Virus record (IMG/VR): IMGVR_UViG_3300021138_000004
Strand: one strand, 5' to 3'
Length of the DNA: 64,000 nt
Origin: a virus
Taxonomy: Duplodnaviria; Heunggongvirae; Uroviricota; Caudoviricetes
The first letter of the stretch is position 1, and each line of letters begins with the position of its first letter. Positions 2,454-64,000 of this stretch are shown in pieces. The notes under the pieces were generated by a model that was not told the origin of the DNA, did not search any database, and saw only the letters and a list, made by a program, of their open reading frames with translations. Both the position numbers and the translations under genes were made by a program.

Positions 2454-2669
2454 TCAATTCCAATCATCATCCCGAGCCGTGAGTGGATCGTAGCCAATCT
2501 CGTCCTTCCAAGTGCCGCCGAACAGTTCCTCTTCCTCGACTTCCCATTCGTCGAGATCAACTTCTTGGAAACCGTCGAGCTCTTCCTCGACCTCCGCATC
2601 CTCATCAAATCGACGACGATGTCCCGCGCCTTTGAACAGACGATCTAAAGGTGTAAAACGATCATTCAT
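2454..2669 (-). CDS. hypothetical acidic protein (71 aa)
   Basis: ORF track; AAGGAG RBS; overlaps upstream gene stop. Confidence 0.55.
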   Translation of the reverse strand: MNDRFTPLDRLFKGAGHRRRFDEDAEVEEELDGFQEVDLDEWEVEEEELFGGTWKDEIGYDPLTARDDDWN

Positions 2670-2948
2670 CTTCTTCTCCTTCTAGTGTAACTTCAATAAA
2701 GGGCATTTCATTCCAGTGCTGATCCCCTTCAATTCTACTATATTGTTCGAGATAGGACTCACAGATGTCTGCTAGCCAAACAAATCGATATTGATCTTCA
2801 GCACTCATTTTAACTGAGGCAGCAGAGTCTATGCGCTCGAGAACTGCGACAGTATAAGCGAGATCGTTGAGTGTGTCCGCAGACAAACAATGATCAATGT
2901 CTAACCGATGACCGGTCTCAAAGTTTACATAAGTGACATTCCTGTCCA
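2662..2948 (-). CDS. hypothetical protein (start adjusted to MDRNVTY)
   Basis: ORF track 2662..3009; internal ATG preceded by AAGGA RBS and promoter 3000..3028. Confidence 0.5.
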
Positions 2949-2999
2949 TGATCAATTCCTTGTATATACGCACACATGAGAGCGCGTGTTCATTGTGTA

Positions 3000-3028
3000 T
3001 ATATAACACACACTCACGAGCGTGTCAA
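3000..3028 (-). promoter_or_regulatory. sigma70-like promoter (TTGACA-17-TATATA)
   Basis: read on minus strand. Confidence 0.5.
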
Positions 3029-3039
3029 TACAAGTAGAC

Positions 3040-3780
3040 AACCTTTTTTGACTATATAGTGAGAACTAGGTCAACGAGAGATCATCGTATATAGAGAGAT
3101 CCTTGTATACGCGCAGTCCCATGCACAACAGCACAGCGGGGTCTTGGCTGTAGTGGGACTAAATGTGGTTCTATACAGTGACTGCCCCACTAAACAAACC
3201 ACCGAAAACCTCGAAGAATCGGGGAGTTCTTGGTCAGGTTTGACGGGATTTTTGAACGATTTGGATCAGTTTTCACAGGTTTTTTACTGTAAAAAAATTT
3301 GGATTGGCTACGGTGGAGAGAGGCTATGCTAGAATGGTTTTCATTCTTTTCTCAATTTTTCAATCTATATATGATCACCCTCTCGCCTCTTTCTCAATTT
3401 TTCAATCTATATATGATCACCCTCTCGCCTCTTTCTCAATTTTTCTCTCATCTCTCACTATATAAGCATCACCCTCTATATAGTCCCACTCTATATACGC
3501 AATCTCTCGATCACCCCCAGTTTCTCTATATATGAGTTCTAGTATATAGTCAATCACCCGCTCTGCTTCTAAACAGCTCTAGAGATTGTGTGTATATACA
3601 GCGCATTCTAGTTCTACAGTGGATTGGCTTATATAGTCAATCGTTCTGTTTTTATATAGTGAATTGGCATAAATAGTCATTGACTTTAGTGCCTTTGTTC
3701 TGTATACTTGATGTTGAGTTTGAACATTCGTTGAGTAGTTCTTCTATATAGATAGGGTTCACTTATACAACGAGTTCTTT
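3040..3780. repeat. about 0.7 kb non-coding AT-rich region with iteron-like repeats (TATATAGTCAAT x5 and tandem 42-bp units)
   Basis: no convincing ORF; repeated tatatagtcaat/tatatagtgaat elements; candidate origin or regulatory hub. Confidence 0.5.
3346..3500. repeat. tandem direct repeat, 42-bp unit tttctcaatttttcaatctatatatgatcaccctctcgcctc, 2 perfect copies plus degenerate copies
   Basis: seen directly at 3347-3431 then decaying. Confidence 0.7.
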
Positions 3781-4072
3781 ACTCAATACAATATCGAAAA
3801 AGAAATATACTGGCCCGCTTTTCGTCAGTGACAGTATATATAGCATAGAGTTCGTCGTCGTCTTCAATCTCGCGACTATATATCAATCCATATTCTTCTT
3901 CGATATAGTCTACTACCAGTCGAGGATCACCGGCCTTCATTAGCCGTCTTGCTATATGAAATATTCTATTCAAGGAAAGTTTAACTTCAGCCACAGTATT
4001 TGAGTATGAAAAAAGCGGCTCTTTTTTCATCAGTGACAGCATAAGCAACACGGCGGCCTCTTTGGAAGTCAT
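3779..4072 (-). CDS. hypothetical protein, paralog of 3987..4190 (shared C-terminal VTDEKRA..F..YC)
   Basis: ORF track; true start may be an internal Met. Confidence 0.45.
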   Translation of the reverse strand: MTSKEAAVLLMLSLMKKEPLFSYSNTVAEVKLSLNRIFHIARRLMKAGDPRLVVDYIEEEYGLIYSREIEDDDELYAIYTVTDEKRASIFLFRYCIE

Positions 4073-4190
4073 CGAAGGTAATTTGGTATGGAGTATATAC
4101 TAGTCCGAATTCCTGTTCGAGATCACAGTCAGAGAGACCTGCATATATAACGCGCACTTCTTGTTCTTCTGTGAGTTTGATTATCTTCAC
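3987..4190 (-). CDS. hypothetical protein, paralog of 3779..4072
   Basis: ORF track; conserved C-terminal motif. Confidence 0.45.
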   Translation of the reverse strand: MKIIKLTEEQEVRVIYAGLSDCDLEQEFGLVYTPYQITFDDFQRGRRVAYAVTDEKRAAFFILKYCG

Positions 4191-4795: not shown

Positions 4796-5278
4796 CTAGG
4801 CTTTCTTGCCGTAGTTCTTATCCCATTTACGAGCACAGCCTTCGATGATCATCACAGCATAACGGCAATGGAACTCGTCAAAGGTCTTGAGCAGGGCAGT
4901 ATCCACGGGCACATTGCAGTCACGCAACAGATAGCGAGCAATGGCCACCGGAAACACTCGGTCCGAATATTCGGGAGGGCGACTGCGAAGGTGCTCAACC
5001 AGCTCTTCACGGTTGTGGCCCAGCATCCACTGGCATTCGGCAATCTCAGCATCCCAATCATCATGTGAGCGGGCCTTGCGGGCAATCTCTGTGTAATTGG
5101 AACGACCGATCTGCGGACCCCGGGTAAAGTAGGTCAGTTTGGTCTCGGGTGCTGCAAAGTTCTCATGGAGAAAAGAGTAAAGATCATCCCAAGCACGATT
5201 TGCCTCTGCATGATCTCCATAGACAGTAGCCTCAATCACCGGACGAATCAACATAAGTGCAGTCTGATACTTGTCCAT
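4796..5278 (-). CDS. hypothetical protein (160 aa)
   Basis: ORF track. Confidence 0.55.
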   Translation of the reverse strand: MDKYQTALMLIRPVIEATVYGDHAEANRAWDDLYSFLHENFAAPETKLTYFTRGPQIGRSNYTEIARKARSHDDWDAEIAECQWMLGHNREELVEHLRSRPPEYSDRVFPVAIARYLLRDCNVPVDTALLKTFDEFHCRYAVMIIEGCARKWDKNYGKKA

Positions 5279-10123: not shown

Positions 10124-10585
10124 TTAATCCACATAGTATCTTTTCTTTGCCACTCCATCTCCGATGGCAAATCTCTCTACCCCGACATATTGAATGTCTT
10201 CGAAGTAGCCAGAACCACGGTTGTCAATGGAAATATCACGCCCGAAGTCGTCCTTGAACTTGATAGTGTATTCTTCGGAATGTTCAGTGACGTACTTGGC
10301 CAGCTTGTCCGCTTGAGTTTCCGAAATCGTAGCATGAAGAATGTCGATCTTTCCATAAGCACGACCGAAGCTGTCTCCAGTGTCGTAGATCATATAGACC
10401 ACATAGACATATTCAGCATCATCGGGAACGACAAACGATTCGCTGCAATAAGGAACATAGGCATCGTCTGCAATACGATAGGCATCGGTCACACTCGAAG
10501 AATATTTTTCTTCCCAATCACCATACGCCACATCCTCAAAATACGAATGGGTGCAGTCTTCTTCATAGTCAACTCGGATACGCAT
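10124..10585 (-). CDS. hypothetical acidic protein (start MRIRVDYEED)
   Basis: ORF track 10124..10633; GGAGG RBS before internal ATG. Confidence 0.5.
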   Translation of the reverse strand: MRIRVDYEEDCTHSYFEDVAYGDWEEKYSSSVTDAYRIADDAYVPYCSESFVVPDDAEYVYVVYMIYDTGDSFGRAYGKIDILHATISETQADKLAKYVTEHSEEYTIKFKDDFGRDISIDNRGSGYFEDIQYVGVERFAIGDGVAKKRYYVD

Positions 10586-10586
10586 A

Positions 10587-10979
10587 TCAATCCTCCTCGT
10601 CGTAATCATCGATCCAGATATCATAGTTGTCATACCATGGATCGTTCTTGATCTCGGGCGTGTTCACCTTGGCCCACGCTAGGTATACTTCTGCATCAGC
10701 AAGATCATGGAACAGGTAGTGATCGTTGTGGTGTGCACCGATGTTGAGATCACCCAGGCATCCACTGGACTTGAATGTCTCGCTGCTCGACGAGCTGTCC
10801 ACATCATATTCGATCTCTCGAAAACCTGAATCATTGGTATGAAGATTGCGAACATTCTTCATCTCGGTCATGAAGCTGGCGCTGCCCAAGCCGTGGACAC
10901 CATACAGTGTCTTGCCTAGCAGACCGAACAGAATGGGCTTTTCTCTTTCGATTGCACCAAAGGGATAATTGTGAGTCAT
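10587..10979 (-). CDS. hypothetical protein (start MTHNYPFG)
   Basis: ORF track 10587..11318; AAGGAG RBS and TTGAC-17-TATAAG promoter upstream of internal ATG. Confidence 0.55.
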   Translation of the reverse strand: MTHNYPFGAIEREKPILFGLLGKTLYGVHGLGSASFMTEMKNVRNLHTNDSGFREIEYDVDSSSSSETFKSSGCLGDLNIGAHHNDHYLFHDLADAEVYLAWAKVNTPEIKNDPWYDNYDIWIDDYDEED

Positions 10980-11007
10980 TGTCGGTCTCCTTGCTTTGCT
11001 TATAGCA

Positions 11008-11373
11008 CTAGGGACGATAACCGTCAACAGGAATTTCTTCTCCGTCCGACAAAAGATCATCATGAAATTGCGCAAGGCGGCGAGGATATTCTGCAATCGC
11101 CCAGTCGATAATCTTCTGGACTTTTTGCTTGACATCTTGAATCGATGCAGGCAAATCGATGGAGATCCAACTGCTGTGATCAAGGCAGACCCGATCAATA
11201 CTGGGATCACACTTGTTGAGGTCGTCCTCCATGTCTTCCTGCAAGCGATGCAGAATGTTGGTGCGTTCGCTCCAGTACCACCGAGGTTCATTAGGCTGCA
11301 TCTGCCACATTGCATCAAATGGAGCCAATGCTTCGTCTAAGTGAAGTGTTGCGCCGTAAGTAATAGTGATCAT
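11008..11373 (-). CDS. hypothetical protein (121 aa)
   Basis: ORF track. Confidence 0.6.
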   Translation of the reverse strand: MITITYGATLHLDEALAPFDAMWQMQPNEPRWYWSERTNILHRLQEDMEDDLNKCDPSIDRVCLDHSSWISIDLPASIQDVKQKVQKIIDWAIAEYPRRLAQFHDDLLSDGEEIPVDGYRP

Positions 11374-11406
11374 TTCACGATTCCTTGTTGTTTGTGCTAT
11401 ACTAGC

Positions 11407-11652
11407 CTAGGCAGCTTGCAGCAGGAGGTCTTCTTGCTCGAGTTGGCGATAGTATTCGCAACGAGCAAGGAAATCCTCAGGTGATTCGTTGTGATACGGG
11501 CGTTCACCGTATTCCTTGATGATGTCGCGGATTTCGCGCGGAAGGCTGTCGTAGTATTCCATTTCTTCGGCAGCCCACATCTTGATTTGTTCGTTGATAA
11601 AGATCATTTCCCAATCTCCTTGTTTTGTGTGTTGCGTATAGCGTAACAGCAC
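11407..11652 (-). CDS. hypothetical protein (81 aa)
   Basis: ORF track. Confidence 0.6.
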   Translation of the reverse strand: MLLRYTQHTKQGDWEMIFINEQIKMWAAEEMEYYDSLPREIRDIIKEYGERPYHNESPEDFLARCEYYRQLEQEDLLLQAA

Positions 11653-13457: not shown

Positions 13458-15611
13458 TTATTTTCCTTTCGCAGCATCCACAAGCCGGATGTATTCAGCG
13501 ACAGCAGTCGCTTCGGCATAGTGATTGATCTGCGACAGTAGCGGATACCGATTGACCGAGCTGCGAAGCGCGGCAGTTTCGACATCAACTTTGACAGTCA
13601 CATCCTTCTGAGTGATCTTGTCACCATATGCAGTGATCAGCGAGCGCAGAGCATGATGATCGAACTTGATCTTGTCAGCAGCACGGATAGCTTCGATCGA
13701 AGTCTTATACGGGCTGTCTGCGGCAATCAACTTCAGCACATCGTCGGTGTAGCGATAACGGTCACCGTTGTCAACCATCGATGCAGCCATCTTCGAAATA
13801 GTTGCTGCATCAATGCCGTTGATCGTGTCAACGACCACAGTTTCGAAGTTAACCCAATTAGCCATATTCGCAATCGCATCGCGAGCGTCCTTGCGAAGTC
13901 CGTAGACCTTAATACCCTCGGCGAACAGGCCTGCCGAAACTGCCTTGCGAACCAACTCACTGACTTCGATCTGGCCTTCAAGCTCGGCGGTCAGTGCCTT
14001 GATGGGCACATAGTAATGAGTCGCAGTCTTGTCAAAGCTGGCAATGGGCTTGTCTTCGCGCCAGACCAAGTCTGCATCACGCGACCGATAGGCATAGCTG
14101 CCGGCGTTGCGCTTCTGCAGGACGAACGCATTGGACAGCACAGGAGCCGCAGCAGGACCACGCACGGCCTTCTCCGACGGCGTGAGCGCGCTGACCATGA
14201 TCTGCTTGGGCGGATTGTGCAGCGCCTTGATCAAGGCTGCGGTGTTCATGGGCACCTTCTTGTCAATGGGCTGAGCAAGCCAAACAATATGCTCACCATA
14301 GAGCGCCTTGAAGTGCCGCTTGGCACGAATCAGCGGATTGCTCTGACCGTCGTTGATCACAAGATTGAAGTGGCTGGCCACAGGAATCTGCCAAAAACTG
14401 ACCGAACCTTTGCTGACATGATCGTATTCGGTATCAACGCGGATGGTCTTGACGACATCACTGTAGCTAGCGGACCTGAAGGCCGAGAAGCTGATGTTCC
14501 ATTTGACAAGATCAGCAGCATTGATCCGCAAACGATTGACGTGCGGGCGACCGTAGTAGCCATTGGAAATCAAATCGTTTGGATTGTTGTTGAGATATTG
14601 CGTGGCAGCAGCCTGCGTCAGCTTGCTGGCGCCGAACTTCTCAAGCTGGAGAGCAAAATCCCATTCGTTGGTATACTGCTTCAATTCTTCGGCAATATAC
14701 GATTCAAGGTGATCGGCAACAGCCTGCAGCTTGGCCTTGATTGCAGCAATGGTCTCCGGAATGTAGCTGAGACCTTCGCGTGATGCCTGGATGTCAAGCT
14801 CACCGATGTCAAAGTGCAGCTCGAGGCCGCACTCGAGCACTTGTGCAAGATCACCGAGGTTAGCCACCGCGTTGGGCACCTGCAACGGATAACCAATGTT
14901 ACCCATCACTGCGGTGCTGTAGTGGCTGCGACCGAGCTCATGCACGCCGGGCATGATGTCCTTGCGAGCATAGTTGACAGTCTCGGGCTCAAACCCGTCA
15001 ACGCCGATCACGTTGGGCTTGGTAGCGAAATACTTGAACACTTCGCGAGCTTCTTGGTGGAACTTGCGGAAGTCGTAGCTGTCATTGACACCAAAACGGA
15101 CTTCAACACCGTTCGGATCAGTAGTCTCTTCTTCCATCATCAGTGCGATCGACGGAACACCGTGTTCGTTGATGAACGCAGTATATACGCCGCGCCGGCC
15201 GTCCTTGACTGCGGTAACAGTGAAGTTATCGGTATAGGAAAACGCAGCCTTGGAACCAAGACCGAGGCCGCCGATAACGTCGTTCGACTCAGACTTGGTC
15301 GACTCGAAGTAGGTGGTGTAAATCTGCACCACGCCTTCATGGCTCAAACCGATGCCGTAGTCGCGAACAGCGAACCAAGGCTCCAAGGTGTTCGGAAGAT
15401 GCACATCGAACGGGCAATCAGCGCGGCCAGCCATGATGTGCGAATCCCAAGCATTGCAGGAATACTCGCGGATGATCGCCTTGATCTTGTTGGCATACAA
15501 GCCGCTGGAAAGAATCGAAAATGCCTTTGCGCTATTGCGAATGCGGAACTCACCAGTTTCGCCGACATTGCTGAGAACAGGCAAATTCTCAGCAGCACTC
15601 TTGATGATCAT
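13458..15611 (-). CDS. rIIA: rIIA protein (GHKL-type ATPase fold)
   Basis: EYSCNAWDS (N box), VRDYGIGL (G1), GGLGLGSKAAF (G2); about 717 aa; immediately upstream of rIIB as in T-even phages; start at MIIKSAAENL with AAGGA RBS. Confidence 0.85.
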   Translation of the reverse strand: MIIKSAAENLPVLSNVGETGEFRIRNSAKAFSILSSGLYANKIKAIIREYSCNAWDSHIMAGRADCPFDVHLPNTLEPWFAVRDYGIGLSHEGVVQIYTTYFESTKSESNDVIGGLGLGSKAAFSYTDNFTVTAVKDGRRGVYTAFINEHGVPSIALMMEEETTDPNGVEVRFGVNDSYDFRKFHQEAREVFKYFATKPNVIGVDGFEPETVNYARKDIMPGVHELGRSHYSTAVMGNIGYPLQVPNAVANLGDLAQVLECGLELHFDIGELDIQASREGLSYIPETIAAIKAKLQAVADHLESYIAEELKQYTNEWDFALQLEKFGASKLTQAAATQYLNNNPNDLISNGYYGRPHVNRLRINAADLVKWNISFSAFRSASYSDVVKTIRVDTEYDHVSKGSVSFWQIPVASHFNLVINDGQSNPLIRAKRHFKALYGEHIVWLAQPIDKKVPMNTAALIKALHNPPKQIMVSALTPSEKAVRGPAAAPVLSNAFVLQKRNAGSYAYRSRDADLVWREDKPIASFDKTATHYYVPIKALTAELEGQIEVSELVRKAVSAGLFAEGIKVYGLRKDARDAIANMANWVNFETVVVDTINGIDAATISKMAASMVDNGDRYRYTDDVLKLIAADSPYKTSIEAIRAADKIKFDHHALRSLITAYGDKITQKDVTVKVDVETAALRSSVNRYPLLSQINHYAEATAVAEYIRLVDAAKGK

Positions 15612-15679
15612 TGTGTAGTCCTTCTGTTGCTGTCTACCTCTCTGTTTTAGCAGAAAAGTAGACAGCGTCAAGTGGTTTT

Positions 15680-15987: not shown

Positions 15988-16599
15988 ATGAATATTTATT
16001 ACGTCTACGCATACCTTCGAACAAAAGATCTCACACCATATTACATCGGCAAAGGTAAAGGTCGCAGGGTTTATGAAAAACATAACGTCCCTGTTCCTTC
16101 TGATAAATCCCGTATCGTGTTTCTTGAAAAAAACCTAACTGATATCGGCGCGTGTGCATTAGAGCGAAGATATATTCGTTGGTATGGACGAAAAGATATC
16201 AACACTGGAATACTCCGGAATAGGACCGACGGCGGCGAAGGAACTTCTGGTTTCATCCGTGACCAAGAATTGGTAGTTAGAACAATGGAAACCAGAAGAA
16301 AAAACGGAACGTGGTCGACAGTTACTCCGGAATCTATTGCGTTGAGAACAGAAACTAGAAAACGCAATGGTTACCAATTTACAGAAAAATCTGCGGAAAA
16401 AATGCGCCAAACAAAAAATAAAAATGGAACCTCTAATTCTAATTCTCCGGAGTCTAATGCTAAACGAGTCGCTACTCGAAAGAGTAATGGCACCTACAAA
16501 CAGACTCCGGAGTCGATCGCCAAAATGCTAGAAACAAAGAGGCGAAATAAAGAATTAAGACTTAGTAGTAACATTGGATTTGAAAAGCATACCGGTTAG
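15988..16599 (+). CDS. GIY-YIG homing endonuclease (Seg-like) with NUMOD3-type repeats
   Basis: [33 protein letters not shown] motif; repeated SPESIAxxxETRKRNG units; AAGGAG RBS. Confidence 0.85.
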
Positions 16600-17339: not shown

Positions 17340-17993
17340 ATGTATTTACACAACAAATATTCTAAATGGTATAATTCGATTATCGAAAGAGCGCGTTCTC
17401 GTTCAATTGAGGGTTATACTGAATCACACCATATTATTCCTAAATGTATAGGCGGCACTAACAAGAAAGAAAATCTAGTGCGTCTTACCTATCGTGAACA
17501 TCGACTATGCCATTTATTGCTACCATATATGGTTACCTCTGAATACAAAGGACTGATGTGGAGGGCTGCAAAAGGTGTTCTAATGTATAATGGGCCAAAT
17601 CATGAACGGGTTGAAAGTAGAAGCCGATTAGCTGAGAAAGCTAGGATCGAAGCTACTTCGTCTCGCAAAGGTATTCCTCGCAGTCCGGAAACTATCGCTA
17701 AAATAAAAGCTACCAAAGCAGCGCGTCCGATGTCCGATGAAAATCGCGAACTATCTCGACAAAAACGAATTCGAGCAAACCAATCTCGAAAAGGAATGCC
17801 ACATAGTGCTGAACATAATCGAAAAGTTTCGGAATCACGAAACGGACAACAGTCACCAAATAAAGGAAAATCGATGAGCTTCGAGCAGCGCCAAAAAATA
17901 AGCGAAGCTCATAAGGGAAAAATAAGGAGCGTCGAACATTGTCAAAATATCAGCAAAGCAAAGACGACCGAGCTTAAGAATCGATCTACCTAA
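17340..17993 (+). CDS. HNH homing endonuclease with NUMOD3-type repeats
   Basis: ESHHIIPKCIGGTNKKENLVRLTYREHRLCHLL; repeated SPETIAKIKATK / SAEHNRKVSESR units. Confidence 0.85.
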   Translation: MYLHNKYSKWYNSIIERARSRSIEGYTESHHIIPKCIGGTNKKENLVRLTYREHRLCHLLLPYMVTSEYKGLMWRAAKGVLMYNGPNHERVESRSRLAEKARIEATSSRKGIPRSPETIAKIKATKAARPMSDENRELSRQKRIRANQSRKGMPHSAEHNRKVSESRNGQQSPNKGKSMSFEQRQKISEAHKGKIRSVEHCQNISKAKTTELKNRST

Positions 17994-28172: not shown

Positions 28173-28808
28173 ATGTCTATTTATTACACTTACCATCTAT
28201 ATCACAAGCTAACTGACAAAAATTATTATGGAGTCAGGTATGCAAAAGGATGTCACCCTTCTGATCTATGGACAATTTATTTCTCATCTTCTAAAGAAGT
28301 GCGTAAACTTATCGAAGAACACGGTAGAGATTCATTCGTAGCACAAGTTCGAAAAACTTTTCCTACTAAAGATGCAGCCATAGAATGGGAAACCCGGTTT
28401 CTGCGAAAAATTAACGCTGCTAATAATGACCGATGGTTAAACCGATCAAACGGTGATAAAAATTTCAGAGGGACAGGATTGTCTAGTGATAAACAACGTC
28501 GAGCGTCTAGTAAAGCAAATAAAGGAAAAATCGTTAGCGAAGAGACTCGTCAAAAAATACGAGATGCCCGAAAACGGCAGGCTCCGCCTAGTGAAGAAAC
28601 TCGTCGTAAAATCAGTGAGTCGAACAAAAATCGAGTGCATAGCGAAGAGACTCGCCGAAAACTAAGTGACGCTCAAAAAGGTCGCGTTTTCAGTAAAGAG
28701 TCTCGTGCTAAAATGAGTGAAGCAAGAAGAAACATTACTGAAGAAACGCGACTTAAATTGAGTTTGGCAAAAAAAGGCCAAATTCCTTGGAATAAAGGTA
28801 AAAAATGA
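28173..28808 (+). CDS. GIY-YIG (Seg-like) homing endonuclease with NUMOD3 repeats
   Basis: MSIYYTYHLYHKLTDKNYYGVRYA; repeated SEETRQKIRDARK units; close paralog of 46744..47424. Confidence 0.8.
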   Translation: MSIYYTYHLYHKLTDKNYYGVRYAKGCHPSDLWTIYFSSSKEVRKLIEEHGRDSFVAQVRKTFPTKDAAIEWETRFLRKINAANNDRWLNRSNGDKNFRGTGLSSDKQRRASSKANKGKIVSEETRQKIRDARKRQAPPSEETRRKISESNKNRVHSEETRRKLSDAQKGRVFSKESRAKMSEARRNITEETRLKLSLAKKGQIPWNKGKK

Positions 28809-29946: not shown

Positions 29947-30216
29947 ACAGCGGGGTCTTTGCACACGGCGTTCTGGCCCAGCGTTGTCTAAGTTCCTGCA
30001 GTATATGATAGCGCACATCATAGGTCAAGCATTAATTTGCACACGCTTGCTCATACACACAACAAGTTACAGCGGGGTCTTTAGCGTTAATGGTAAACAT
30101 ATGCACTTGACACGGAATAAGTGCGTATATATAATGCAGGCATACACATCACATCCGTGGTGTGGTTTCAACCTAGATTTATGTGTGAACACGCATAAAG
30201 TTACAGCGGGGTCTTT
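29947..30216 (+). repeat. three copies of 14-bp motif ACAGCGGGGTCTTT spaced about 122 and 134 bp apart in the divergent control region
   Basis: copies at 29947, 30069 and 30203; further copies at 1975 and 3133. Confidence 0.6.
30107..30135 (+). promoter_or_regulatory. consensus sigma70 promoter TTGACA-17-TATAAT heading the rightward block
   Basis: ttgaca cggaataagtgcgtata tataat on the plus strand. Confidence 0.6.
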
Positions 30217-30221
30217 ACATT

Positions 30222-30386
30222 ATGAGTAAGATTGCTATCATTTCGATCACTGTTATCCTTTCTGTGACCTTCGGCGGAGCGTTTGCGCTCGCAGCTTGGG
30301 AAGATCATGTTCGAGGACAATGCCGCGCTGCATATGCTACATCCACTCGTAGTGTAGTTGAAATCCAAGCTATCTGCGGAAATTAA
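30222..30386 (+). CDS. small membrane protein (54 aa)
   Basis: ATG 5 nt after the GGGGTCTTT motif; hydrophobic IAIISITVILSVTFGGAFALAAW. Confidence 0.4.
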   Translation: MSKIAIISITVILSVTFGGAFALAAWEDHVRGQCRAAYATSTRSVVEIQAICGN

Positions 30387-40523: not shown

Positions 40524-41615
40524 TCACCATTGAGTTTTCGATTCATCGGGGAAATGTGATATCCAATCATATTTAACACCTAACTGTTTGATCACATATT
40601 CGTATGATCTTTTGTCTGCTAATAGCGTAAAAAATCTTCCGCTACCTGAACTTGCATTCTTAGCAAGACGTTTTAGATTATCTAAGTTATGACCTGCAAC
40701 ATCACTGTCTGTAACTAGGATGACATTGTACTCTTTACTCAATACCGAAGTAGCAGCAGACGTAACTTCGTCGGGCAGTTCATTATACCCGTTACTGCCG
40801 ATGCTAAAGAATTGAGATAGCGGATATGTGCCAGTAGATGGTACTGGTTTTTCTGCACCTTCGAAATTAGTAGTTGGCCAAAATCTATTATTATCGAGAT
40901 CTAGAGCAAAATATCTAGGCTCCCCGCCTGTTAGCACAACACTTACAATACCAGCAACTCCATCATTTAGTGATTCCAAAAGATTCTTCACATTGGACAT
41001 AGTAGTTTTAATTTTGCTGATCATGCTTCCTGAGCTATCTAGGATGAATGCTAATTTAACTGCGTTTTCTGTGGCTTTTTCACCAGGTTTTAATGCGCCA
41101 GCGCCTAGTTCGGCTGCTGCTGCAACACTGGCGCCTGCTCTTTTATTGATCTTAGACCATGATGGGTCAAAGTTCTTTTCAGTTTCTGCAAATTGTTCCA
41201 GGATAGATTCCCAACTGTAGGTAGGTTTAGGAATTTTACCGATATCTCTGAGTCCCATATCTGGTGTATCTTTAGTGCTAGAAGTGTTTATCTCTCCGTC
41301 ACCGTTATCTACCCCGCCCTCTCGATCGGATCCTTGACCCTTTCTCTTGCTAAGAATGTCGTCAATATCTTTTTTTGTTCTAGTTACAGTATCGCGGTCT
41401 TTATCTCTGCTATCAGATTTTTCGTTCCCCGGCTTACCTGGCTGTGGTTGTCCCTGCCCCGGCTTACCTGGCTGTGGTTGTCCCTGCCCCGGCTTACCTG
41501 GCTGTGGTTGTCCCTGCCCCGGCTGTGGTTGATTTTTTTGTCCTTGATCGCCTTGCTGGTTAGCATCTTGCTTTTTACGAAAGGTACCTTTGTTCCAAGT
41601 TTCAGTATTGGTCAT
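40524..41615 (-). CDS. von Willebrand factor A (vWA) domain protein with N-terminal PGQGQPQ repeats
   Basis: MIDAS motif LAFILDSSGSM (DxSxS); 3 perfect 30-bp repeats encoding PGKPGQGQPQ. Confidence 0.7.
   Translation of the reverse strand: MTNTETWNKGTFRKKQDANQQGDQGQKNQPQPGQGQPQPGKPGQGQPQPGKPGQGQPQPGKPGNEKSDSRDKDRDTVTRTKKDIDDILSKRKGQGSDREGGVDNGDGEINTSSTKDTPDMGLRDIGKIPKPTYSWESILEQFAETEKNFDPSWSKINKRAGASVAAAAELGAGALKPGEKATENAVKLAFILDSSGSMISKIKTTMSNVKNLLESLNDGVAGIVSVVLTGGEPRYFALDLDNNRFWPTTNFEGAEKPVPSTGTYPLSQFFSIGSNGYNELPDEVTSAATSVLSKEYNVILVTDSDVAGHNLDNLKRLAKNASSGSGRFFTLLADKRSYEYVIKQLGVKYDWISHFPDESKTQW
41427..41531. repeat. perfect tandem repeat 3.5 x 30 bp (ccccggcttacctggctgtggttgtccctg) inside the vWA gene
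   Basis: seen directly. Confidence 0.8.
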
Positions 41616-42876
41616 TGTCGTCCTCTAAGTCGTCTAAATCGGAATTATCAAGGTCGTTGTCTGTAGGTGGAATTTGCTTATTAACTACTGGCGGCGCACG
41701 GTTAATTGCAGGATGCGGCGCTGCTGTTGGAGCATCGATCTGCACCTCTACCGAGCCGTCGTTGTTAATTTTAGTAACAATTCCTTCTTTGCCGGCACTG
41801 TTCACAACTCGATCTCCTACTGCAATCTCTTCGCCGTTTCCGTCGTTTTGATCATCATTTTGATCGTTTTGATCATCGTTTTGATCGTTTTGATCATCAT
41901 TTTGGTCGTTCCAGTCATTATCGTCATCGTCGATTATAGGATCATTATGTACATCTGCTTGTGTTACTTGTTCTAACCAATCAAGTAATTGTGTATCATT
42001 AATTTTTCTAAGCTCTTCGCTGACGGTTTTAATAAGTTTATCATAAGACGGAGTTTCTGGTCTATCAAAATTGAGATCGTCGCTGAATAATCCCATAGGT
42101 AATTGTTCATATCCTGATTTAACCAGCGAATAATTAATTCTAAAATCTTGTGCCCAATTATGTGCCATGTGATCGTATTTGTCAAATCTACGACTGGTAC
42201 TGAAGTCACCTTCAATGAAATGCATAAGTTCATGCAGGATTAAGAATTCGATGTATGCATAACCATTAGGAAATGGTCCACCGTTGGCCTCGTATTTTTC
42301 ACCTTTTGGTTTTAGATCTACGACTTTTGCGTAGTACAGAAGTTGCTGCATAAAATTACGATTGAATATAAATGTTGCATTGGGTGTAGCAGCAGCCGTA
42401 GGAATCTCACCATATTCGTGTCCGGGATTAGGATCATTTGATGAAACTAACAGAGTTTTCGTCCCACTGTATCGCTTGAGAGAACCGGGTTCTCTCAATA
42501 ATAGCATGGCTTGGGGATGCTCTCTTTCTATTTCCTTGATTAACATTTTGAAATCGATATCTTCAAATTCGACATCACTTAAATCTAGTGAACCCATCTT
42601 TGCAGATTCTTGTATATGGTTAAATGCTGCATTTTCTGCGATATTTTTTACAAGAGTATCATATAATTTAGGACTAGTTTTCTGTAAAGCTGCAAATTCT
42701 TGAGAATATTTTTCCATACTTTTTATGATTATCTGTGCAGGGACTTTGGTCCTTCTAGACAGATCAGCGACAACACTTTGGATATGTGGATCATTCATTG
42801 CAGATGACTTAAAAGGGACTTCTCCCTTTTCTGATCGAGTTCTAACGAATGCTTCTAAAAGTTCTTTAATTCTCAT
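41602..42876 (-). CDS. zincin-like metallopeptidase motif protein (HExxH) with acidic DNDQ repeat tail
   Basis: ILHELMHFIEGDF; C-terminal DQNDDQNDQNDDQNDQNDD encoded by 21-bp repeats about 41844-41910. Confidence 0.6.
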   Translation of the reverse strand: MRIKELLEAFVRTRSEKGEVPFKSSAMNDPHIQSVVADLSRRTKVPAQIIIKSMEKYSQEFAALQKTSPKLYDTLVKNIAENAAFNHIQESAKMGSLDLSDVEFEDIDFKMLIKEIEREHPQAMLLLREPGSLKRYSGTKTLLVSSNDPNPGHEYGEIPTAAATPNATFIFNRNFMQQLLYYAKVVDLKPKGEKYEANGGPFPNGYAYIEFLILHELMHFIEGDFSTSRRFDKYDHMAHNWAQDFRINYSLVKSGYEQLPMGLFSDDLNFDRPETPSYDKLIKTVSEELRKINDTQLLDWLEQVTQADVHNDPIIDDDDNDWNDQNDDQNDQNDDQNDQNDDQNDGNGEEIAVGDRVVNSAGKEGIVTKINNDGSVEVQIDAPTAAPHPAINRAPPVVNKQIPPTDNDLDNSDLDDLEDDNDQY

Positions 42877-46590: not shown

Positions 46591-46751
46591 CGGTTAAAGA
46601 ACTCAAAGAATTGCTTGACGAATTGCCTAGCGATGCTAAAGTGTTTTATGAAGGCGGCGAATACAAGTATGACTATCGCAGCGTCTACAAGGTAGAATAC
46701 AACGAACATGCAACTTTGGCCTCGACCGGCCATTCAGTTTTTATTAGGTGA
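46587..46751 (+). CDS. small protein (GTG start overlapping the upstream TGA)
   Basis: ORF track 46527..46751 trimmed; GTGA junction. Confidence 0.45.
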   Translation: MTVKELKELLDELPSDAKVFYEGGEYKYDYRSVYKVEYNEHATLASTGHSVFIR

Positions 46752-47424
46752 CCGAGTTTCTTGGTTTACCTTTTTTAGAGTTGCTGATCTTTTGTTTGAC
46801 TTCTTCTGAGTGTCTGTAACCTGTTTTTAGTAGCGATTCACTTATTTTACGTTTTTGTTCTTCACTCATCGGTCCCCTGACTCTACCTTTTGCAGCATTG
46901 CCCATTTTTTGACGAGTTTCTTCACTTAATGTTCTACCTAGGCCACGGTTTTTACTGGCTTCACACATTTTCTGACGAGTTTCTTCACTAATTGGTGGCC
47001 TCTTTCTTCTTGATTCGGACATTTTCTGTTTTGTTTCCTCACTATGCGATTTACCGAGTCTAGACTTACTCATTTTACGGCGAGTTTCGTCAGTGTGGAT
47101 TATGGCACCTCGAAATTTTTTATCACCATTTGATCGGTTTAACCATCGATTATTAGTAGCCGCTTTGATTTTTTGTAAAAAATTTGATTCCCATTCTATG
47201 GCTGCTTCTTTGGTAGTAAATGTTTTTCGAACCCTGGCAACAAAAGTTTCTTTCCCGAATTCTTCGATAAGATTCTGTACTAATTTAGAAGATGAAAAAT
47301 AGGTGGTCCATAGATCCGATGGGTCACATCCGTCGGCATATCTGACACCATAGTAATGTTTGTCAGTCGGTGCATGATATAGGTGGTACGTGAAATAAAT
47401 AGACATGGCTGATAGTTCCTTCAT
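46744..47424 (-). CDS. GIY-YIG (Seg-like) homing endonuclease, close paralog of 28173..28808
   Basis: MSIYFTYHLYHAPTDKHYYGVRYADGC...; repeated SEETKQKMSESRR units. Confidence 0.8.
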   Translation of the reverse strand: MKELSAMSIYFTYHLYHAPTDKHYYGVRYADGCDPSDLWTTYFSSSKLVQNLIEEFGKETFVARVRKTFTTKEAAIEWESNFLQKIKAATNNRWLNRSNGDKKFRGAIIHTDETRRKMSKSRLGKSHSEETKQKMSESRRKRPPISEETRQKMCEASKNRGLGRTLSEETRQKMGNAAKGRVRGPMSEEQKRKISESLLKTGYRHSEEVKQKISNSKKGKPRNSVT

Positions 47425-60732: not shown

Positions 60733-60925
60733 AATAAATGGAATGCACGTAATTATTAGGGCGGCAAACTGTCTGTATCTATGATAATCCGTTAACTGAT
60801 GACAAAGATCTTAATAATTTTAAAGCAGAACAATATAGATTTAACGTATGCCATTTTGGCATTCAATCTACTAACACATAAATAATATCGTGCAGGGACA
60901 ATACAGGCCCGCCGAGGAGAATTAA

Positions 60926-61622: not shown

Positions 61623-61627
61623 GTCCT

Positions 61628-64000
61628 ATGGGACATACTAGAAAGGTCAACGCTGGCCTAGCACAAATTGATTCGACGAGATTCGTTGGTGAATACGGAC
61701 ATATTTTCTATGACAATGATACAGGTGCATTAAGACGCAGTGATGGCGAAACTCCGGGTGGATTACCTGTAACAGTTGCATTAACTACCGCTAGTATTGG
61801 CGATTTAGTCATTCAAGGTTCAACAATCAGCACTATTAATGCCAATGAAAATATTGTATTGCAGAGTAATGGGACCGGAGAAATTTCTGTAATTGGATCA
61901 TTTATGGTCCAAACTCCCGGCGGACAACCGGTTTTAGAAATTGCCGATGACGGAACTGTTAGTTATATTGCTCCCACTGTTACTAGCAATGATGTAGCTT
62001 TTGAAATTATTGGCAATGCCAGTGGTACGAGTTTACCACCGACTAATACCGGGGGAATGTTAGAAATAACTGGTCAGCCTAATTTACCAAATAGAATTTA
62101 TTTTGATGCTCAAAATAATTATCCTGTAATTGTTGGTCGTAGATATAATGGTAGTACTGCTGCTCCTACACAAGTTTTAAATACTCAGACTTTTATGCGC
62201 ATTGGTGGAAATCCCTATAATACAGGTGGATTTACCTCATTAGGAACTACTAGAATTGATTTTGTTACCTTAGAAGATCAAACTGTTTCTAATCAAGGAT
62301 CAGCTATTCAATTCTATACCACTCCAATTGGTAACAATCAGCCATTGGTAGGCATGCAAATTAGTAATGAGGGCATCTATCATGCGGCTAATGTGGTTCC
62401 ATTATTGGATGAAGGTAGCAGTTTAGGCAGTCCCACCCAGCGTTGGCAATATGCATATGTTGGCAAAGGTGGCTTATATATTGCTGATAATTCAACTGAT
62501 GCCAATATCCAAATCGCTGTCAATAGTGGCTCATTTTACATTAATGGTGTACAAAACATCGTGCTGGGGCAGATCGTAGTCGCCGGTAGTACACTAGAAT
62601 CCACAGTTCCTTCTAGTGATATCACTATTGGTAATGTAAATGATACTGGCCTGTTTACGGTTAATCGCCAGACCTATATATCAACGCCAAACTTTTCAAC
62701 CAGTACAGCTATATTGACCATTGACGGAGTTAATTCAACTTCAACCATAGCAGATTTGACTATTGCGGGCACATTAATACACGCTGTTAATCAGCCAGGC
62801 CATAATGCTGCTATTGTAGTTGATAGTTATGGTGCAGGCATATGGCCCATATTTATGAGTCGTGCGGCTCGAGGCACAGTGGCGGCGCCATCTGCTGTTC
62901 AAAATGGTGATGTCATCGCTAGCCTTGTAGGTAACGGCTACGGCGGCGGATTCAATTCGGGATATGGTGCTATTCCAAATACCAGTCGTATTGACTTTGT
63001 AGCCACCGACAATTACAGTCCCACGGCCCGTGGCAGTCAGATTGACTTTTGGGCTGTGCAACCCGGAACGACCACATCCACGTTGGTAGCTGCTGTGGAT
63101 TACAAAGGTATTAGAACTCAAGGCATAACTTTTAGTGGCGATGGCAGTTATCAAACCACTGCAGGAGTGCCTGTAACTTCTGTGGGTATCAGCAATGGTA
63201 TTGCACAATTAGGTCCTGATGGTAGACTCGCCGCAAGTCAGATTCCGACCAGTCTTCAGGGTGCAGTTACATTTGCCGGCGGATGGAATGCCAGCACGAA
63301 TACACCTAATCTGGCAAATAACACTAGTACCTACTCGACGGGCACAGAATTTGTAATAACGGTTAGTGGAACTCAAAACCTAGGCACACAAACTGGCAGT
63401 GTAAATTATCTTGCAGGTGGGTTTGTTATATATGGTGCGGGTGTTTGGAATTATAGTCCGAGTGCTAGTGCATTTTTGGGAATAAGTGCAATCAACCATA
63501 TCAGTGTGAATACCGGTACAGGACTCATCCAGGTTTCCAGTGACGCTACTTCTAATAACACCACTTCCACAATAGTTGCCAGAGATGGATTTGGTAATTT
63601 TTCTGCCAATGTTATTACAGCAACATTAAGTGGCGCTGCTACTAGTGCAGGAACAGCAGCAACAGTAACCGGTGCAAGTCAGCCGGCCATTACGAGTGTG
63701 GGCATCCTGTCAGGATTATCTGTATCTAGTACGATAGTCGGTAGTATTCAAACTGCCAACAAACTAACAACTGCAACTACAATTAATGGAGTTACATTTG
63801 ACGGCAGTTCTCCTGTTACCGTTCATACAGCAGGAACTGGCATCAGTATCAGTGGAACAACTGTAACAAACACCGGCGTTGTTAGTACTGCGACGTTAAT
63901 GACAAATGCAGTCAACGCAACTACTGCAAGTTTTGCAACTACGAGTGGATATGCTCAATCATTTAACACATCGACACTGGTAACAAATGCAGTCAACGCA
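61628..64000 (+). CDS. large tail fibre / spike protein, 5' partial (runs off the window end)
   Basis: open frame from ATG 61628 with no stop to 64000; Gly/Thr/Asn/Val-rich with repeated LVTNAVNA units. Confidence 0.65.
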   Translation, partial: MGHTRKVNAGLAQIDSTRFVGEYGHIFYDNDTGALRRSDGETPGGLPVTVALTTASIGDLVIQGSTISTINANENIVLQSNGTGEISVIGSFMVQTPGGQPVLEIADDGTVSYIAPTVTSNDVAFEIIGNASGTSLPPTNTGGMLEITGQPNLPNRIYFDAQNNYPVIVGRRYNGSTAAPTQVLNTQTFMRIGGNPYNTGGFTSLGTTRIDFVTLEDQTVSNQGSAIQFYTTPIGNNQPLVGMQISNEGIYHAANVVPLLDEGSSLGSPTQRWQYAYVGKGGLYIADNSTDANIQIAVNSGSFYINGVQNIVLGQIVVAGSTLESTVPSSDITIGNVNDTGLFTVNRQTYISTPNFSTSTAILTIDGVNSTSTIADLTIAGTLIHAVNQPGHNAAIVVDSYGAGIWPIFMSRAARGTVAAPSAVQNGDVIASLVGNGYGGGFNSGYGAIPNTSRIDFVATDNYSPTARGSQIDFWAVQPGTTTSTLVAAVDYKGIRTQGITFSGDGSYQTTAGVPVTSVGISNGIAQLGPDGRLAASQIPTSLQGAVTFAGGWNASTNTPNLANNTSTYSTGTEFVITVSGTQNLGTQTGSVNYLAGGFVIYGAGVWNYSPSASAFLGISAINHISVNTGTGLIQVSSDATSNNTTSTIVARDGFGNFSANVITATLSGAATSAGTAATVTGASQPAITSVGILSGLSVSSTIVGSIQTANKLTTATTINGVTFDGSSPVTVHTAGTGISISGTTVTNTGVVSTATLMTNAVNATTASFATTSGYAQSFNTSTLVTNAVNA

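Follow-up and report, generated by a model that had tools for sequence, protein, structure and literature searches.

What is the function of a gene-free, repeat-bearing stretch of DNA in the compact genome of a large T4-like phage? The stretch in question lies at 3-4 kb of the window, the whole segment of 64,000 nucleotides that was analysed, which derives from humic-lake metagenomes and was assigned to a T4-like phage by its rIIA/rIIB and gp15 genes. The phage is uncultured and appears to be lytic; scaffolds of ~357 kb come from a related lineage. For large T4-like phages other than the T-even group, hardly any origins or early control regions have been mapped, and an earlier note had proposed a candidate origin or control hub at this place. 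The locus was found to be a spacer, conserved, non-coding and cis-acting, that separates two early transcription units running leftward.

Contigs of 48-357 kb cross the locus, which was compared in four lineages (the window, L001/L003/L019, L014/L016 and L005). DNA searches, near and distant, with the region against 50,697 phage records returned no match, a pattern search of IMG/VR for further relatives yielded one contig only, and the neighbouring small proteins have only two or three homologues.

Extent, composition and coding status

The gene-free, AT-rich region reported at 3040-3780 was confirmed and proved slightly larger, extending from 2950 to 3778 (~829 bp). GC content by segment was 0.35-0.44, and the bin 3001-4000 (0.388) was the lowest of the first 30 kb, with bins of lower GC present in the right half of the window. 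The duplex stability of the region was within the least stable 1% of the window without being the minimum. TATATA boxes, previously described as several, numbered 13 in 3040-3780 (0.5 +/- 0.7 expected from dinucleotide shuffles) and 16 in 2950-3780 (0.6 +/- 0.8 expected, likewise from dinucleotide shuffles), a ~25-fold excess; 22 of the 34 copies in the 64 kb fall in 2963-4144. As sigma70 promoters these boxes were rejected, a -35 element being found only at the 3005-3000(-) box. A long non-coding stretch is unusual for the window, as had been claimed, but other such regions, also gene-free and repetitive, are found immediately left of it (10387-11580 and 12257-12833 of L007).

Two + strand ORFs lie inside the region, 3144-3332 (62 aa) and 3299/3326-3535, the second annotated as a gene in one assembly only (L009). 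Counted from the ATG at 3326, the frame has 69, 55, 47, 29 or 39 codons in different lineages; conservation of the opening codons is partial (M-[LF]-[EK]-[WY]-F), and from about codon 6 on 1-nt indels shift the frame, the shared DNA core being read in differing frames. In L001 and L005, indels and a stop codon interrupt the 62-aa ORF. Neither ORF is a conserved reading frame because frameshifting indels separate the lineages. On the minus strand, direct reading of the 42-bp unit gave a stop in each frame. Compared with the remainder of the window by tblastx and short-word blastn, the region matched only the 13-mer motif, and an origin by decay from the paralogous genes beside it was rejected on that result. 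No Rfam match was obtained at gathering or permissive (E<1) thresholds; the best hits, CRISPR-DR48 (E 2.3) and a lncRNA (E 3.5), were at chance level. RNA folding and alignment folding of both strands gave no convincing structure (z -0.8 to -3.8), and covariation among the four sequences was limited to five weakly compensatory pairs. The region is neither a protein gene nor an Rfam RNA; a small RNA or protein gene, the finding that the earlier note had named as fatal to its reading, was absent by Rfam and ORF comparison.

The 95-aa gene on the left is syntenic in all lineages, its exact protein occurs on nine contigs, and its homologues are 93%, 73% and 46% identical; the protein has no Pfam or PHROG match. 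The 54-aa gene on the right is paralogous to 3987-4190(-), with the common motif ..VTDEKRA..F..[KR]YC, in a family confined to this phage group, and gene content on this flank differs between lineages. Searches with ten neighbouring ORFs gave no relevant Pfam or PHROG match and one weak match (E 0.0027) to a PHROG of unknown function; the neighbouring proteins are acidic or tiny ORFans limited to this phage group. The region is situated in a hyperplastic early-gene zone, where the small ORFan genes all have an early promoter in front of them. A PeSL-like indel is found 1 kb leftward (1991-2035), where a promoter and stem-loop are duplicated around an extra 99-aa gene.

Conserved blocks and the repeat array

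The four lineages have the same layout: a leftward promoter, a unique segment, the array, and a rightward promoter with a hairpin. Coordinates are collected in Table 1.

Table 1. Features of the spacer and of the genes on either side, in window coordinates.
Feature	Position	Strand	Description
95-aa early gene	2662-2949	(-)	True ATG at 2949, preceded by AAGGA; adjoins region on left (downstream)
Sigma70-type early promoter P(-)	3028-3000	(-)	-35 TTGACA (3028-3023), 17-bp spacer, -10 TATATA (3005-3000)
TTGACTATATAGTGA	3047-3062		10-bp palindrome ACTATATAGT, an inverted copy of the TATATAGTCA box
CACAGCGGGGTCTT, oriented motif	3132-3145	+	Invariant in four lineages amid variable flanks
Small hairpin AAGAATCGGGGAGTTCTT	3214-3231		TTTT 6-7 nt after it on minus strand; pairs kept, one-sided changes only
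A/T block TTTTTTACTGTAAAAAAATTTG	3280-3301		Conserved; unique in window
16-mer GTGGAGAGAGGCTATG	3313-3328	+	Reads GGAG, 7 nt, ATG; anchors array start in every lineage
69-codon open frame	3326-3535	+	Begins at invariant ATG; not a conserved protein
Five-unit array	3334-3565	+	Unit TTTCTC.., TATATA, ATCACCC; 6-7% G
Perfect 42-bp tandem repeat	3348-3445	+	2.3 copies; three degenerate units follow
Ancestral core CTCTCACTATATAAGCATCACCCTCTATATA	3452-3482	+	Near-identical in L014, L016 and L005
GTGTGTATATACAGCGCATTCTAG	3587-3612	+	Decayed ACAGCGGGGTCT motif fused to TATATA box; L001 there reads GTGTGTATATACAGCGGGGTCTAG
Local duplication of ~40 bp, GGATTGGCTTATATAGTCAAT / GAATTGGCATAAATAGTCATT	3621-3682	+	Specific to window lineage; yields 12-mers at 3630 and 3653
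Sigma70-type promoter P(+)	3680-3708	+	TTGACT, 17 bp, TATACT; 10/12 match
Imperfect hairpin, ~80 nt	3709-3790		Just 3' of P(+); overlaps stop codon of 3779-3943(-)
54-aa small early gene	3779-3943	(-)	Holds three TATATA boxes

P(-) drives leftward into the 95-aa gene, with a Shine-Dalgarno sequence (SD) and the gene downstream. Its -35 hexamer is a 6/6 match, a UP-element-like A-tract lies upstream (~3040-3049), and at least ten other early promoters are built alike (GTTGACA-N17-TAtAAt). Hexamers and spacing are retained in L001, L019, L014 and L005, the spacer sequence being different in L005. P(-) has every feature of a sigma70-type early promoter of a T4-like phage, including AT-rich upstream sequence and conservation in relatives. 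P(+), directed rightward, faces the convergent gene from its 3' end and has no gene downstream; its hexamers and spacing are invariant in the window, L001 and L014, and the 5' half of its spacer is variable. The sequence of the hairpin beside it is conserved, and covariation was sought there and not found. The proposal of a control hub is supported in part by these two sigma70-type promoters, conserved in hexamers and 17-bp spacing.

The unique segment (~215 bp) is conserved block-wise and terminates in GTGGAGAGAGGCTATG, which is identical in the window, L001/L003/L019, L014/L016 and L005 despite flanking protein identity of 46-93%. This block was considered as a promoter and rejected: its -35-like and -10-like hexamers are separated by 20 bp, and TAGAAT, the other possible -10, is replaced by TCAAAT in two lineages. 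The 3047-3062 element is conserved in L001, and its TTGAC part is missing in L014 and L005. The ACAGCGGGGTCTT copy that had been placed at the left edge of the region was located at 3133, ~90 nt inside that edge. Five exact copies occur in the window, all on the + strand (0.8 expected), and their orientation does not flip across the region.

The description of 42-bp tandem repeats was accurate for 2.3 perfect copies and extends to three degenerate units. ATCACCC recurs at 3374, 3416, 3468, 3510 and 3553 (spacings of 42, 52, 42 and 43 bp), 42 bp being about four helical turns. There are at least three direct repeats with a conserved core and regular, helically phased spacing; the units, of 42-64 bp, exceed those of classical iterons. 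T-tracts are phased at the same 42-bp spacing (3357, 3399 and 3441, by direct reading). No other 200 bp of the window is as rich in pyrimidines as the + strand of the array, whose purine content of 28% is the lowest of the 64 kb and ~4 sd from the mean. G on this strand is 2.5-8% in every lineage, spacers between cores included.

A core of ~31-40 bp is kept in the four lineages, and it hardly changes even where identity of the flanking protein falls to 46-73%. L014 has at least three core copies at 64-bp spacing, L001 and L003 have a diverged core in a 61-bp unit, and the stretch that the array fills between its conserved anchors measures 83 bp at the shortest and at least 311 bp at the longest. 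The array stems from one ~40-bp element that was amplified independently in each lineage (42-, 61- and 64-bp units) from the same anchor and still changes in copy number within populations. Two full copies of the perfect 42-bp unit are present in the window, L008, L009 and L012, and one in L006, L007 and L010; apart from this, 1-3 substitutions over 7-11 kb separate the one-copy from the two-copy genomes. Each copy-number allele was recovered from at least three independent assemblies, as is characteristic of a minisatellite (VNTR). Copy number of the perfect unit is weakly constrained, because one or two copies coexist in near-identical genomes. The array breaks assemblies, with a gap in the 357-kb scaffold and many contig ends as the result, and attracts spurious gene calls; those who annotate this phage group should treat it as non-coding.

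The earlier note had also listed five dispersed iterons, TATATAGTCAAT. This was true of degenerate copies but not of exact ones, of which there are two only (3543 and 3630). Copies with one mismatch are at 3653 and, on the opposite strand, at 3047; copies with two are at 2992(-), 3492, 3670 and 4088(-). Eight of the 14 matches in the window fall in 2992-4099 (whole-window expectation, 6.4 +/- 2.6). In alignment A6 the duplication at 3621-3682 appears as an insertion of 37 bp that L001 and L014 lack, and the dispersed 12-mers are mostly lineage-specific products of local duplication. What persists of the iteron claim is the array core, found in four lineages, but not the 12-mers, mostly lineage-specific, or the perfect 42-bp copies, which are a copy-number polymorphism. 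A 'middle-promoter-like' pattern, TTTCTCAA-N-TATA, occurs within the repeats and nowhere else in the window. Anti-Shine-Dalgarno mimicry by GATCACCCTCT was rejected, as there is no CCTCC and CACCTCC is absent from the + strand.

Readings of the array

The locus could be a replication origin that uses the T4-style route of transcription priming; this is put forward tentatively, as the likeliest of the readings considered. With the same reserve, the array may be the core of such an origin, activated by transcription as in T4: easily melted, R-loop-prone DNA with repeated binding sites. Early transcription running leftward from a promoter at 4796 would traverse the array, with no strong intrinsic terminator between. 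The leftward RNA over the array would be purine-rich and could remain annealed to its C/T-rich template; the duplex would thereby be opened at the TA-rich boxes and leading-strand synthesis primed. The repeated core might recruit a putative protein, and frequent opening or stalling would leave the array prone to slippage. By hybrid-minus-duplex energy for minus-strand RNA (a nearest-neighbour estimate with approximate parameters), 3370-3570 ranked 3rd-4th of the 64 kb; other segments of the window favour an R-loop more. P(-) is directed away from the array and P(+) is located beyond it, and only read-through from 4796 (or another promoter) would cross it. Cumulative GC skew, the check suggested at the outset, was calculated within the window and showed no switch at 3-4 kb; the minimum was at 27-29 kb, where transcription diverges. 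No initiator-like or DNA-binding gene was found among ten neighbouring ORFs (Pfam/PHROG), and no DnaA box (<=1 mismatch) or IHF consensus was found in the region. The invariant SD-ATG-like block on the + strand is left unexplained by an R-loop origin.

An RNA read from the + strand offers an account of that block, and is on balance doubtful. A rightward transcript, antisense to the early genes and starting at the invariant block or upstream of it, would consist of a ribosome-binding site, a short non-conserved ORF and unstructured, C/U-rich, G-poor repeat RNA. It could load Rho in the manner of a rut site and so serve as an attenuator or insulator against antisense transcription, or it could be a modular regulatory RNA. 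Rut sites are C-rich, G-poor and unstructured. G is depleted on one strand in all lineages, and a duplex binding site does not need a single-strand property. GGAG-N7-ATG is invariant on the same strand, at the upstream edge of the array, and is followed by the partly conserved codons; the array RNA has no significant structure (z = -1.6). In the same orientation ACAGCGGGGTCTT also follows a consensus promoter (30106-30134), within the 5' leader of a gene on the + strand. However, a further copy of the motif, at 1975, has the opposite sense within a minus-strand leader, the sequence upstream of 3326 yielded no + strand promoter (the hexamers there being those 20 bp apart), and there is no downstream + strand gene to regulate. 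The variation of the ORF in frame and length between lineages, and the want of an Rfam family or convincing covariation, also argue against such an RNA.

An array of operators is unlikely. Sites for a phage or host DNA-binding protein would control both flanking promoters, for instance by early-to-middle shut-off or by looping of the left boxes (3047-3097) to the right boxes. The core does hold a palindrome (CTATATAG / ACTATATAGT), boxes stand in both orientations on either side of the unique segment, one of them overlaps the -35 of P(+) and another falls in the UP-element zone of P(-), and the T-tracts are phased. Against this, the main array is 320-540 bp from P(-) and at least 115 bp from P(+), individual boxes are poorly conserved, Pfam/PHROG searches found no regulator gene nearby, and the G depletion of one strand is not accounted for.

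Few odds are given to a neutral minisatellite, in which the spacer would comprise promoters and transcript ends and the rest would be a slippage-prone, low-complexity tract, without function, that expands and contracts neutrally. The copy-number polymorphism of perfect repeats among near-identical genomes is as this would have it, as are a unit length that differs in each lineage, the scaffold gap and at least eight contig ends within the array, and the short direct repeats that bound deletions and duplications in the region. It does not account for the core and anchor blocks, which are conserved better than the neighbouring proteins, for the excess of TATATA, or for an array and strand bias that persist in four lineages of a compact genome instead of being deleted. 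If the array is neutral, it is still a useful VNTR strain marker for tracking phages across lakes.

It is improbable, again, that the invariant anchor and G-poor array form a new phage origin or control module whose single-strand character, as an R-loop or a G-poor transcript, would be functional, the array being re-amplified independently in each lineage. If this were true, no origin-like element would have been mapped before it in this clade of giant, uncultured T4-like phages of humic lakes.

The two other readings are highly improbable. TATATA is akin to AT-rich phage promoter cores and one ATAAATA is present at 3669 on the + strand, but the cluster of late-type promoters or packaging (pac) site that had been suggested as an alternative is not supported: late-type sites of this phage are ATAAATA, 15-45 nt upstream of start codons; the 3669 copy is TATATAG or CATATAG in other lineages; the boxes stand in both orientations and are not followed by genes; a T4-type late promoter (TATAAATA-like, 15-45 nt upstream of late genes) is not present beyond that one non-conserved ATAAATA; GATC/TGATCA is not enriched (7 vs 5 +/- 2.5 per 830 bp); and the locus is not a fixed genome end, because long contigs and scaffolds read through it. 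A small protein gene, either the 69-aa or the 62-aa ORF, has a strong invariant SD-ATG, the gene call in L009 and an in-frame 42-bp duplication on its side, and is opposed by the changing ORF lengths, the frame shift of the core after codon 6, units of 61 and 64 bp that are not multiples of 3, and the broken 62-aa frame.

As a candidate, the locus is small and sharply bounded, and its clear conserved anchors and natural copy-number alleles make it open to direct testing.

Comparison with known systems

The 42-bp unit and its tandem direct arrangement resemble F plasmid sopC (tandem 43-bp repeats). The sopC units each contain an inverted repeat bound by SopB, and they adjoin sopAB. Here, by contrast, the only inverted element is TATATA/CTATATAG, and no ParA/ParB-like gene was found within 5 kb (Pfam/PHROG searches).

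With the iteron origins of lambdoid phages and plasmids (lambda ori, P1 oriR, R6K gamma) the locus shares tandem direct repeats, a core in helical phase, AT-richness and a purine/pyrimidine strand asymmetry, the last being a property of the AT-rich region of lambda ori. Iteron origins have iterons of 17-22 bp, lie in or next to an initiator gene and often carry DnaA or IHF sites, none of which were found here.

PeSL (promoter-early stem-loop) cassettes are single composite motifs of ~70 bp that flank genes in hyperplastic regions of T4-type phages (PMC2839356, PMC4122927). The setting of the locus, a hyperplastic early zone with small ORFan genes and early promoters, is that of PeSL cassettes; the 200-bp tandem array, which has no sigma70 promoter within it, is not.

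T4 oriE needs an early promoter and has evenly spaced direct repeats of unproven role (PMC3016281). On inspection of the T4 locus, these repeats were a 12-nt element, GTTGAAGGTAAT, every 24 bp within the gene 5 coding sequence, coinciding with a coding repeat; T4 oriE also has antisense repEA/repEB. The present repeats are instead non-coding, 42-64 bp long, unrelated in sequence and outside any gene 5 context, with no repEA/repEB-like small genes evident; as at oriE, direct repeats lie beside an early-type promoter in a T4-like genome.

T4 oriF and oriG combine a promoter with an AT-rich downstream unwinding element and work by an R-loop mechanism (PMC3016281). Their promoters are MotA-dependent middle promoters that immediately precede an unwinding element of ~50 bp. 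Here the array has no promoter immediately ahead of it for transcription in the favourable direction, a search for a MotA-type box gave none, the tract consists of repeats over ~200 bp, and the two share no sequence homology. The likeness is that of a T4-like phage with an AT-rich, easily melted tract that transcription would cross, with purine-rich RNA and a favoured hybrid if that transcription is leftward.

A conserved spacer with a hypervariable repeat array

The stretch 2950-3778 is non-coding, since the 54-aa gene on its right occupies 3779-3943 and the 95-aa minus-strand gene on its left has its true start codon (ATG) at 2949. This conserved spacer carries two promoters of sigma70 type and invariant anchor blocks, together with a repeat array that is both hypervariable and strand-asymmetric. 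Four lineages of metagenome contigs were compared: the window group, L001/L003/L019, L014/L016 and L005. Identity of their flanking proteins to that of the window is 100, 93, 73 and 46%, respectively.

Features of the spacer and copies of the 13-mer, in window coordinates
Feature	Position	Strand	Sequence and context
Leftward promoter P(-)	3028-3000	minus	-35 TTGACA 3028-3023, 17 bp, -10 TATATA 3005-3000; A-tract upstream
Unique segment	about 3120-3345		Conserved in blocks across lineages: CACAGCGGGGTCTT; hairpin AGAATCGGGGARTTCT; TTTTTTA..GTAAAA.AATTT; invariant GTGGAGAGAGGCTATG
ATCACCC in array	3374, 3416, 3468, 3510, 3553		TATATA box before each copy
Third array unit	core 3452-3482		CTCTCACTATATAAGCATCACCCTCTATATA; near-identical in L014, L016 and L005, recognisable in L001
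Rightward promoter P(+)	3680-3708	plus	TTGACT-17-TATACT; hexamers and spacing invariant, spacer variable
Imperfect hairpin, about 80 nt	right part of spacer		Overlaps stop codon of convergent gene
13-mer ACAGCGGGGTCTT, five exact copies	1975, 3133, 29947, 30069, 30203	plus

The hexamers and spacing of P(-) are kept in all lineages, despite a different spacer sequence in L005, so its TATATA box is a working -10 element. No -35 element was found for any other TATATA box of the spacer. This hexamer occurs 16 times in 2950-3780 (0.6 +/- 0.8 expected from dinucleotide-preserving shuffles), and 22 of all 34 in the 64 kb fall in 2963-4144. The elements listed in the earlier note were all present, far above chance expectation. 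Its five copies of the 12-mer TATATAGTCAAT are reached only by counting degenerate ones: two are exact, a further two (one inverted) differ at a single position, and several others differ at two. Copies at 3630 and 3653 sit within a 37-bp insertion private to the window lineage, and the ancestral copy overlaps the -35 element of P(+); the dispersed 12-mers arose largely by local duplication.

Each block of the unique segment is single within the window, the 13-mer excepted. The array starts immediately 3' of the invariant anchor GTGGAGAGAGGCTATG and comprises five units of 42-52 bp, the third of which is the ancestral one. The lineages amplified different units, all at this one anchor. The window group has a 42-bp unit (2.3 perfect copies, 3348-3445, by Tandem Repeats Finder), L003/L019 a 61-bp unit, present once in L001, and L014 a 64-bp unit (at least three copies, on a scaffold with a 100-N gap within the array). 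Anchor-to-anchor distance, between the two conserved anchors, varies from 83 bp to 311 bp or more. Assemblies of the window group yielded both a one-copy and a two-copy allele of the 42-bp unit, each at least three times independently, in genomes only 1-3 substitutions apart over 7-11 kb. The ends of thirteen contigs fall 160-581 nt upstream of the 95-aa gene, and eight of these lie within the array. Beyond the array, the right part of the spacer is well conserved.

Two plus-strand ORFs overlapping the spacer are disrupted by 1-nt indels in the lineage alignments. The ORF from the invariant ATG (3326) has 69, 55, 47, 29 or 39 codons depending on lineage, and the DNA core common to the lineages falls in differing frames. 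Neither the 61-bp nor the 64-bp unit is divisible by three, and direct reading of the 42-bp unit gave stop codons in all three minus-strand frames. No remnant of other window genes was found in the spacer by tblastx. With such indels, ORF lengths and unconserved frames, a protein gene is highly improbable. The spacer gave no Rfam match. RNA folding predictions for the array were unremarkable (z = -1.6 and -0.8); elsewhere the predicted structure was moderate (z = -1.8 to -3.8), and no convincing covariation was found among four sequences.

The phage and its other intergenic elements

The window encodes rIIA (13458-15671, minus strand), rIIB, several homing endonucleases, an ATP-dependent DNA ligase, an endolysin and two tRNAs. 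The phage is an uncultured T4-like phage, because T4 gp15-like and rIIB Pfam domains lie on contigs 98-100% identical to the window, no cultured phage is closely similar (megablast returned nothing, and identity between window proteins and their best phage matches is 31-44%), and humic-lake metagenomes are the source of the relatives. The longest contig of the closest lineage is 143 kb; a sister lineage (flanking protein 73% identical) has scaffolds of about 357 kb.

Early promoters, of sigma70 type, follow GTTGACA-N17-TAtAAt, then AAGGAG and ATG, at no fewer than ten minus-strand sites in the window; T4-type late promoters are ATAAATA, 15-45 nt 5' of start codons. GC content is about 0.48 in 1-30000, where the early genes lie on the minus strand, and drops to about 0.41 in 30001-64000, where most genes are on the plus strand. 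ATAAATA at 60878 fronts the gene from 60926, which precedes a long T/S/G/N/V-rich, tail-fibre-like open frame (61623-64000, plus) that continues past the right end of the window.

Whichever way the neighbouring genes run, the 13-mer has the same orientation. It does not vary in any lineage (it is also present in L001, L005 and L014) and may act as a leader element or a polar DNA signal. Three copies, 122 and 134 bp apart, occupy the intergenic region between divergent genes at 29.9-30.2 kb; the last is 7 nt 5' of the ATG at 30223. The copy at 1975 places its reverse complement within a minus-strand 5' leader, and L001 has an additional copy where the window has ACAGCGCATTCT (3599).

A 45-bp unit at 1991-2035, containing a minus-strand promoter (TTGACA-16-TAGTGT) and the inverted repeat GCTCTGTGCA/TGCACAGAGC, is duplicated around an additional 99-aa gene in L006/L007 (L006 10915-11312); L010/L011 carry yet other cassettes there. 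This indel, polymorphic between genomes about 99.9% identical, is a PeSL-like cassette as in T4-type phages (PMC2839356, PMC4122927). Another conserved cassette is shared upstream of homing-endonuclease-like genes (15920, 17269 and 28107, plus; 47474 and 56262, minus; genes such as 15988-16599, 17340-17993, 28173-28808 and 46744-47424). Its parts are ATAAATA, a leader of ~45 nt able to form a hairpin (..CGCGAT..GCAAG..), CTCTAAC and SD, in some cases with a second ATAAATA on the opposite strand, and it is reminiscent of the way T4 intron endonucleases are controlled, by late promoters or RBS sequestration.

Small tandem paralogues of 54-69 aa (3779-3943 and 3987-4190, minus; also L003 4959-5370) share a C-terminal ..VTDEKRA..F..[KR]YC motif and have five TATATA boxes inside the genes; the family, whose copy number differs between lineages, is confined to this phage group. 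Two further long stretches free of genes, L007 10387-11580 and 12257-12833, lie ~2-5 kb to the left of window position 1; they hold GGGGCANTGCCCC palindromes and a direct repeat of ~92 bp, together with a TTTCTCAAATTTCTCTCAAATTTCTCAAA tract that recalls TTTCTCAATTTTTC, the start of the 42-bp unit. Perfect tandem repeats at 41427-41524 (30 bp x3.3) and 41843-41930 (21/42 bp) are coding, in minus-strand ORFs 40524-41615 and 41602-42876 with weak HNH-endonuclease PHROG matches; by an approximate energy estimate, no other segment of the window favours an R-loop more than the former.

Possible functions of the array

The plus strand of the array has the highest pyrimidine content of any 200 bp in the window, with 28% purine (window mean 50%, sd 5.6) and 6% G. 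This asymmetry is a property absent from the earlier note. G stays at 2.5-8% in every lineage despite the differing units, which points to a function where one strand matters, via transcription, an R-loop or single-stranded DNA, and argues against a pure duplex binding site.

From these features we infer a function for the array. A transcription-activated origin (R-loop or iteron-like) is placed first, tentatively, because it covers the repeats, TA-rich boxes, asymmetry and instability. The array is a phased direct-repeat tract with a conserved core, AT-rich, TA-step-rich and among the least stable 1% of the window, and both sides are transcribed. The RNA-DNA hybrid over 3370-3570 for leftward (early) transcription ranks 3rd-4th of the window (approximate nearest-neighbour estimate). 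However, the region is not the window extreme for stability or R-loop energy, repeat copy number is under weak constraint, the oriented 13-mer keeps its orientation on either side, and no initiator-like neighbour gene, DnaA box, IHF site or GATC cluster was found at the locus. GC skew, proposed in the earlier note as a check on an origin, does not change at 3-4 kb; it reaches its cumulative minimum at 27-29 kb, at the point of transcriptional divergence. Phage GC skew largely follows transcription. A perfect consensus promoter (TTGACA-17-TATAAT, 30106-30134, plus) heads the plus-strand gene block starting at 30223, and with the strand switch and skew minimum at 27-30 kb it makes this divergent region an alternative origin candidate by T4 logic.

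Close behind, and slightly more doubtful, is a G-poor plus-strand transcript or leader. This reading gives the best account of why G is depleted on one strand and of the invariant SD-ATG-like anchor, but is without a promoter. An operator array is unlikely, and a neutral minisatellite within a regulatory spacer is still less likely. The late-promoter cluster or pac site raised in the earlier note is highly improbable.

The origin reading has precedent in T4, where oriF and oriG combine a promoter with an AT-rich unwinding element and work via an R-loop, and oriE combines an early promoter with evenly spaced repeats of unproven role (PMC3016281). The oriE 'iterons' (GTTGAAGGTAAT every 24 bp) lie within the gene 5 coding sequence, whereas the array here is non-coding; the parallel is one of logic only, not of kind, which counts against an origin. 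The spacer sequence is without known relative and its phage clade is uncultured. As a repeat-rich, ori-like or regulatory intergenic region of a large phage it is of a familiar kind; its unusual points are recurrent re-amplification at one anchor and conserved G depletion.
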